Shown here piece by piece: positions 23,880 through 24,091 of a DNA stretch of 64,000 bases (positions are counted from its first letter, which is position 1; each line of letters opens with the position of its first letter). The translations under genes and the position numbers were made by a program. The DNA comes from Escherichia coli. GTDB taxonomy: Bacteria; Pseudomonadota; Gammaproteobacteria; Enterobacterales; Enterobacteriaceae. The stretch is from NCBI RefSeq assembly GCF_003334815.1, contig NZ_QOWO01000010.1; one strand, written 5' to 3'. Under the pieces are notes generated by a model that did no database searches, was not told the DNA's origin, and saw only the letters and a program-made list of their open reading frames with translations.

Positions 23880-24060
23880 AGCATTGCCTGAAGCGCTACG
23901 CTTATCAGGCCTACGCGGATCATCGATGTAGGTCGGATAAGGCACTCGCCGCATCCGACAAGCGCTGCATGATACGACGCCTAACGCGTCTTTTCATGTC
24001 AACGCGGATGAGTCGTTAACACCGCATCCGGCAAGATAAATCGCACGTTGTCAGCAACTG
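23880..24060. repeat. cluster of REP (BIME-like) palindromic units
   Basis: repeated gcctgatgcg.../cgcatccggca-type imperfect palindromes typical of E. coli REP elements, in the sodB-ydhP intergenic region. Confidence 0.7.
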
Positions 24061-24061
24061 T

Positions 24062-24091
24062 AACGCAGAAGGTTATCCTTCTGCGTTTTTG
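24062..24091 (+). terminator. rho-independent terminator (plus-strand, after sodB and the REP cluster)
   Basis: hairpin cgcagaaggttatccttctgcg followed by TTTTTG. Confidence 0.75.

Follow-up and report, generated by a model that had tools for sequence, protein, structure and literature searches.

The spacer between sodB and ydhP holds what is very probably an ordinary chimeric (“atypical”) BIME of the composition z1-y-z2-y, located in the sodB 3′ UTR between the stop codon and an older intrinsic terminator. The window analyzed here, a 64,000-nt stretch of Escherichia coli chromosome whose numbering is used throughout, is identical around this spacer to several clinical isolates and differs from K-12. 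sodB and ydhP converge on a spacer of 234 nt (23863 to 24096), in which a z1 unit (REP1) is followed by 13 nt, a y unit (REP2), 6 nt, a z2 unit (REP3), a further y unit (REP4) and then the terminator (Table 1). The sodB stop codon, a TAA at 23860 to 23862, is backed by a second in-frame TAA at 23863 to 23865, and at the other end the ydhP stop codon lies 6 nt past the terminator U-tract. The first-pass annotation, made from the sequence alone, had seen at least three REP-like units in alternating orientation followed by a canonical intrinsic terminator, at 23880 to 24091; that interval does cover REP1 through REP4 and the terminator, and the core of the reading, a REP/BIME cluster plus intrinsic terminator in the sodB-ydhP spacer, holds on consensus scores and on copy number. 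The locus is otherwise ordinary and already known, since K-12 has both a catalogued element, REPv128ab, and a mapped sodB 3′ end here, and the only noteworthy local detail is the strain-specific allele with 4 REPs.

Table 1. Features of the sodB-ydhP region, in window coordinates.
Feature	Position	Strand	Assignment	Score or basis
sodB CDS	23281-23862	+	Fe superoxide dismutase	ORF list; RefSeq annotation of identical or near-identical E. coli records
REP1	23886-23914	+	z1, ends CTAC (“iREP”); intact	29/30 positions against query GCCTGATGCGCTACGCTTATCAGGCCTACG; score 28
REP1-REP2 linker	23915-23927	.	tail-to-tail linker, 13 nt	GCGGATCATCGAT
REP2	23928-23960	+	y, starts GTAG; intact	score 22
REP3	23967-24003	+	z2, decayed	30/37 consensus positions; score 19
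REP4	24000-24033	+	y, inverted, decayed	25/29 positions against y consensus; score 21
sodB intrinsic terminator	24062-24090	+	hairpin plus U-tract	terminator scan; fold; K-12 Term-seq; same stem in relatives
ydhP	24097-25266	-	MFS transporter	ORF list; RefSeq annotation

REP units between sodB and ydhP

E. coli REPs are imperfect, hairpin-forming palindromes of 30-40 nt with GTAG, or CTAC on the opposite strand, at the foot. Each unit was aligned with the published y, z1 and z2 REP sequences taken from Durrant et al. 2024 (PMC11208160). Under the same scoring, the maximum was 15 in the rest of the 64-kb window and again 15 in three 64-kb shuffles, against 19 to 28 for the four units, so that matches to REP consensus families, on whose presence the first-pass annotation had staked its reading, stand above background in every unit. 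In the complete-genome collection, a query made of REP1 and REP2 gives 40 or more matches in each of 5176 records, and the median per genome is likewise at least 40. The units are thus members of the high-copy E. coli REP family, four in number rather than the minimum of three first proposed, and all four are extragenic, lying between the stop codons of sodB and ydhP. A simpler search with a 14-nt tail pattern and 3 mismatches was not discriminating (9 found versus 6 expected), and full-length consensus alignment with shuffles was used in its place. Weak REP-like scores elsewhere in the window, near 6436, 14476 and 57706, fall in coding sequence or a plain terminator and are not REPs.

Two of the units are intact and two are decayed. 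The orientation alternates, with REP1 and REP3 carrying the CTAC-type tail on the plus strand and REP2 and REP4 inverted, and the GTAG/CTAC foot motif is kept in REP1 and REP2 and lost in REP3 and REP4. In REP1 the CTAC stands at 23911 to 23914, and the hairpin is predicted at −12.8 kcal/mol (z = −3.0). REP2 has its GTAG at 23928 to 23931 and the most stable hairpin of the four (−18.7 kcal/mol, z = −4.7). The tail of REP3 reads TTTTCATGTCAAC against a consensus of TTATCAGGCCTAC, with CTAC now CAAC, and its hairpin still folds at −13.9 kcal/mol (z = −4.4), within which the terminator scan marks a weak terminator-like site at 23976 to 23990. REP4 overlaps the REP3 tail by 4 nt, has lost its GTAG and leaves its upper stem unpaired, and folds weakly when taken alone (−7.3 kcal/mol, z = −0.27). 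Folded as a whole, the spacer gives 4 separate hairpins plus the terminator at −90.8 kcal/mol, compared with −68.3 ± 4.5 for shuffles (z = −4.98). The TnpA-REP transposase needs GTAG in order to bind and cut (PMC3333891), and its substrates combine a GTAG-bearing REP that has a two-base mismatch in the stem with C/T cleavage sites in the neighboring inverted REP. REP2 has the GTAG motif and retains the AA/GC mismatch as an internal loop in its stem. REP1 has TGCC/TGA and GGCC/TAC (C/T marking the cut), which are like the published TnpA-REP cleavage sites (PMC3333891).

Two other candidate features in the spacer were set aside. A 47-aa ORF at 23876 to 24019 on the plus strand (MQHCLKRYAYQ...) is made of the REP1 to REP4 repeat sequence and was rejected as a gene, and a promoter-like site on the minus strand, 23997 to 23969, is at chance level (1 found versus 1.1 expected). 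A REP element is annotated in the yaaX-yaaA spacer of the GenBank K-12 record. The RefSeq annotation NC_000913.3 carries no repeat features at the sodB-ydhP spacer, nor at yaaX-yaaA, and so it neither confirms nor denies REPs here. Elsewhere in the window, the 50-nt lhr-grxD spacer has one hairpin, at 21616 to 21643 (GACGGATGC...GCATCCGTC), that resembles a degenerate single REP; K-12 grxD is given “REPt127” in a published table, and the K-12 Term-seq 3′ end of grxD is just beyond that hairpin.

As to the class of the element, BIME-1 comprises one z1+y pair whose units are joined by a long L linker, often with an IHF site, and BIME-2 consists of tandem z2+y pairs with a short S linker and s, l or r flanks; chimeras in which z1, z2 and y units are mixed are called atypical BIMEs, and the number of BIME copies at a locus varies between strains (PMC3333891). 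In the sodB spacer, REP2 to REP4 form a y-z2-y series, but the cluster is headed by z1, and since z1, y, z2, y is a chimeric composition the cluster is classed as an atypical BIME.

The sodB 3′ end and the history of the spacer

The terminator is an 11-bp hairpin (stems 24062 to 24072 and 24077 to 24087, including 6 GC pairs) with a TTAT loop and a U-tract at 24086 to 24090, the tail being given as TTTTTGTTT / UUUUUGUUU. Its fold is predicted at −17.8 kcal/mol (z = −6.8), and the K-12 sequence is identical over the terminator part. Term-seq data for K-12 place a plus-strand 3′ end at 1736114 (Adams et al. 2021, eLife, supplementary file 1), which is the fifth U after the hairpin and corresponds to window position 24090. 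The same file has no other curated 3′ end from 1734542 to 1737422, and the classifier of Adams et al. 2021 labels this one “antisense to ydhP”. The strain in that study is K-12, with two REPs at the locus rather than four. The mapping of the sodB mRNA 3′ end that had been proposed as a check already exists in published form for K-12, and the end falls past the REPs, at the canonical terminator that the first-pass annotation had described. Because the 3′ end lies at a terminator downstream of the REPs, these must be transcribed as sodB 3′ UTR: in K-12, sodB transcripts continue past the REPs as far as the hairpin and U-tract, where they end. For the allele in the window we infer, on sequence grounds, that the RNA 3′ end would lie at 24090. 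The sodB 3′ UTR then measures about 228 nt in this allele, compared with 155 nt in K-12 and 139 nt in the majority of strains.

In the opposite direction the terminator was not called as bidirectional; what comes after the hairpin on the minus strand, UUACAGUUG, makes a poor U-tract, and the K-12 Term-seq list has no minus-strand 3′ end at the terminator. A Rho-dependent termination region is reported inside ydhP, at K-12 position 1736788 on the minus strand (window about 24764; Adams et al. 2021, supplementary file 2), and so many ydhP transcripts may never enter the REP spacer. At the other end of sodB, a 13-bp hairpin with a T-rich tail (23157 to 23186, plus strand) sits just 3′ of mepH (ydhO), about 95 nt upstream of the sodB start codon, and is probably the mepH terminator. 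The Rfam “SodB 5′ UTR thermometer” model, RF02775, has a weak, sub-threshold match at 23206 to 23310 on the plus strand, over the leader and start codon of sodB (31.4 bits, gathering threshold 98, E = 0.0014). Rfam matches at gathering threshold in the window include STnc550 at 25429 to 25819 (minus), over the cydH/ynhF region between ydhP and purR; RprA at 58348 to 58455 (plus); RydB at 52684 to 52744 (minus); and two tRNA genes at 34411 to 34565 (plus), with an overlapping antisense match to the HPnc0260 model.

The terminator has a longer history than the repeats. A degenerate pattern for the end of sodB returned 47 loci in other species, with E. whittamii as the single other Escherichia species among them. 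In Salmonella enterica subsp. arizonae, Trabulsiella guamensis and Kluyvera ascorbata the stem CGCAGAAGG-loop-CCTTCTGCG and its U-tract are the same as in E. coli, and no REPs were found between sodB and the terminator in these three. Escherichia whittamii has two compact REPs (z2-like and y-like) upstream of the same terminator, and in other genera the position is taken by a single, unrelated hairpin. From Escherichia to Kluyvera the stem is identical and only the loops vary (TTAT, TATC, TTCG, GCAAT and GAGA); since it is the stem sequence itself that is conserved, no covariation can be counted. The occurrence of the same stem without REPs in related genera shows that the terminator is older than the REPs, and that the REPs are an Escherichia-lineage insertion upstream of it.

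Within E. coli, a survey of 5426 complete genomes sorted the spacer into three size classes. The 234-nt allele of the window, with 4 REPs, is found in 1345 genomes (25%); a 161-nt allele of the K-12 type, with 2 REPs, is found in roughly 370 to 385; and nearly all the remaining genomes, about 68%, have a 145-nt allele with 2 REPs, both decayed, whose tails overlap. An uninterrupted spacer region is missing in only 6 of the 5426. Relative to the window, the 161-nt allele is without the 73 nt between direct repeats (CCGCATCCG) of REP2 and REP4, so that its second REP is a REP2/REP4 hybrid, and the 145-nt allele is without 89 nt between ACGCGGAT repeats; both REPs of the latter are without GTAG/CTAC. 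In a neighbor-joining tree of the flanking coding sequence (680 nt), with E. whittamii as the root, the 145-nt allele occurs on every deep branch, and the 234- and 161-nt alleles are confined to one shallow group, alongside 145-nt alleles with identical flanks, so that the idea of a separate flank haplotype for the 234-nt allele was dropped. The placement suggests that the 145-nt allele with 2 REPs is probably ancestral in E. coli, that the 234-nt allele would be a later gain, and that the K-12 type would have arisen from it by a 73-nt loss through recombination between the two y units.

The gain does not look like a clean insertion, because the 234- and 145-nt alleles have identical flanks yet differ at several positions inside the REPs they share; a divergent variant of the 145-nt allele has a second REP identical to REP4 of the window. 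Inter-allelic recombination or ectopic conversion may have had a part in the origin of the 234-nt allele. A more ambitious reading is that the three alleles on identical flanks document the site before and after a recent BIME gain, maybe through the transposase or ectopic conversion, the 234-nt allele now having a fresh z1 tail together with an intact y unit and a z2, and that the additional 89 nt of 3′ UTR hairpins might alter sodB decay after RyhB-triggered cleavage. We think this improbable; if true, the allele series might show how REP pairs are added.

The spacer has also received a mobile element. In strain hubt-sl (NZ_CP104206.1, L004:224-1502), IS621, a member of the IS110 family with a bridge-RNA recombinase, is inserted in REP1 at window position 23912/23913, where the left junction reads ATCAGGCCT/TGTAT and the right one ACAGTATCT/ACGCGG. 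The natural target of IS621 in REPs is ATCAGGCCTAC, with a CT core (PMC11208160). This target lies inside REP1, and the insertion in hubt-sl sits exactly at it.

Possible roles of the cluster

Stabilization of the sodB mRNA is plausible, by analogy with other REPs, because the REPs lie inside the transcript. REP RNA is a barrier to decay that is overcome by RhlB/PNPase and by PAP I (PMC10100675). In such a scheme RNA polymerase would read through the REPs and terminate at the hairpin and U-tract, and REP1, REP2 and REP3 would fold in the mRNA into separate stable hairpins. These could act as second-line barriers to the 3′-to-5′ exonucleases PNPase and RNase II once the terminator hairpin had been breached, or after an upstream cut by RNase E, and clearing them would need RhlB together with PNPase, or poly(A) polymerase. 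The cluster itself would be present because REP/BIMEs are non-autonomous repeats on which the REP-associated tyrosine transposase acts, as does recombination between copies in direct orientation, and its presence need not reflect any requirement on the part of sodB. The K-12 Term-seq data, from a strain with two REPs, list no secondary 3′ end at the foot of any REP, which suggests that stalled decay intermediates are not prominent there. A required role for sodB is unlikely, since most E. coli have two decayed REPs and the relatives have none. The effect that Liang, Rudd and Deutscher described in 2015 reportedly depends on a REP lying no farther than about 15 nt from the stop codon. REP1 has its foot 23 nt away from the sodB stop, and that effect is therefore not expected here. 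As for RyhB, we found no literature data supporting a link with a REP-bearing 3′ UTR, and a RyhB-REP connection is pure speculation.

Whether the cluster does anything for the host is close to an even call. The REPs could be neutral or selfish repeats without host function, decaying in a tolerant 3′ UTR upstream of the terminator, and much of the evidence fits: they are absent from Salmonella, Trabulsiella and Kluyvera, where the terminator is the same; GTAG/CTAC, of which GTAG is required by the transposase (PMC3333891), is gone from REP3, from REP4 and from both REPs of the 145-nt allele; copy number varies freely among strains; and the spacer of one strain has tolerated the insertion of IS621. 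However, this account is compatible with the preferred one, of an ordinary atypical BIME in the sodB 3′ UTR, and not truly opposed to it, and hairpins this stable in an abundant mRNA would impede exonucleases somewhat, whatever their origin. A role at the level of DNA, with the cluster acting mainly as a site of gyrase binding and cleavage that relieves positive supercoils between convergent sodB and ydhP, as has been reported of BIME-2 elements, seems to us rather unlikely. Gyrase cleavage sites are over-represented in BIME-2 elements and y-type REPs are cut more often than z2 (PMC6379681), an intact y unit (REP2) adjoins the z2 unit REP3 in this allele, and the two genes do converge on the spacer. 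Yet only a subset of BIME-2 elements have cleavage sites (PMC6379681), the sodB cluster is a chimeric BIME with two decayed units and not a tandem BIME-2, and about two-thirds of E. coli have just two decayed REPs here, the related genera having none. Gyrase binding at the cluster is nonetheless possible by analogy, given the y REPs.

Two further alternatives fare worse. The REP-bearing 3′ UTR could yield a stable regulatory or nucleoid-associated RNA, naRNA4-like or 3′-UTR-derived, and the naRNA4 model does give a sub-threshold match over REP2 and REP3, just as the terminator stem sequence is conserved across genera. The likeness, however, is that of REPs to a model itself derived from a REP element; moreover, K-12 Term-seq reports no internal 5′ or 3′ end in the spacer, no publication describing such an RNA from this spacer was found, and most strains have either no such REP part or a different one, all of which makes a stable RNA very unlikely. 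Least credible of all is a BIME-1 (RIP/RIB-type) element with IHF bound between two REPs. REP1 and REP2, as z1 and y, do form a BIME-1 pair, but the 13 nt that link them do not make up the long conserved L, further units of the z2 and y types come after them, and the IHF consensus WATCAANNNNTTR is unmatched in 23863 to 24096 even with 1 mismatch allowed. The general remark in the first-pass annotation that such clusters can bind IHF is thus not borne out in this spacer.

We thus return to an ordinary atypical BIME in the sodB 3′ UTR. Few repeats of E. coli are better known than REP/BIME clusters in 3′ UTRs, and the finding in itself matters little. For more utilitarian purposes, comparisons of sodB mRNA stability or RyhB regulation across strains should allow for a strain-dependent 3′ UTR length, and the alleles are a small natural series for testing the effects of REPs on an abundant mRNA.

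Comparison with known elements

The closest known system is the element at the same locus in K-12, where sodB is tabulated with “REPv128ab” (PMC10100675). It shares the locus, the flanks and the terminator, and its REP1 and 13-nt linker are identical to those of the window. In contrast, it has two REPs (z1 and y) in a 161-nt spacer, against four in 234 nt, the difference being the 73 nt that hold the 3′ part of REP2, the whole of REP3 and the 5′ part of REP4. With BIMEs at large, the cluster has in common alternating z1, y and z2 units, short linkers, more than one pair, and a copy number that varies between strains; unlike them, its second pair (REP3 and REP4) is decayed, with tails that overlap without a linker.

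naRNA4/REP325 (Rfam RF02564) has in common with the cluster a head-to-head y-z2 REP pair, and its model covers REP2 and REP3 (23931 to 24000, E = 4.5e-7). Here, however, the match is to one pair, at 47.7 bits, below the gathering threshold of 59.5, and a scan at that threshold gives no naRNA4 match in the spacer. The REP stabilizers of 3′ UTRs and intercistronic regions, for example malE-malF, or osmC and yghA in PMC10100675, likewise place stable REP hairpins, which should obstruct 3′-to-5′ exonucleases, in the transcript downstream of a coding region, but at sodB a strong intrinsic terminator further downstream already protects the 3′ end. That terminator, finally, has its counterparts in Salmonella, Kluyvera and Trabulsiella, where the same CGCAGAAGG/CCTTCTGCG stem and U-tract are followed at once by convergent ydhP, where this gene is present; in those genera it lies 6 to 50 nt after the sodB stop, as against 200 nt here, with the REPs and their flanking spacer in between.
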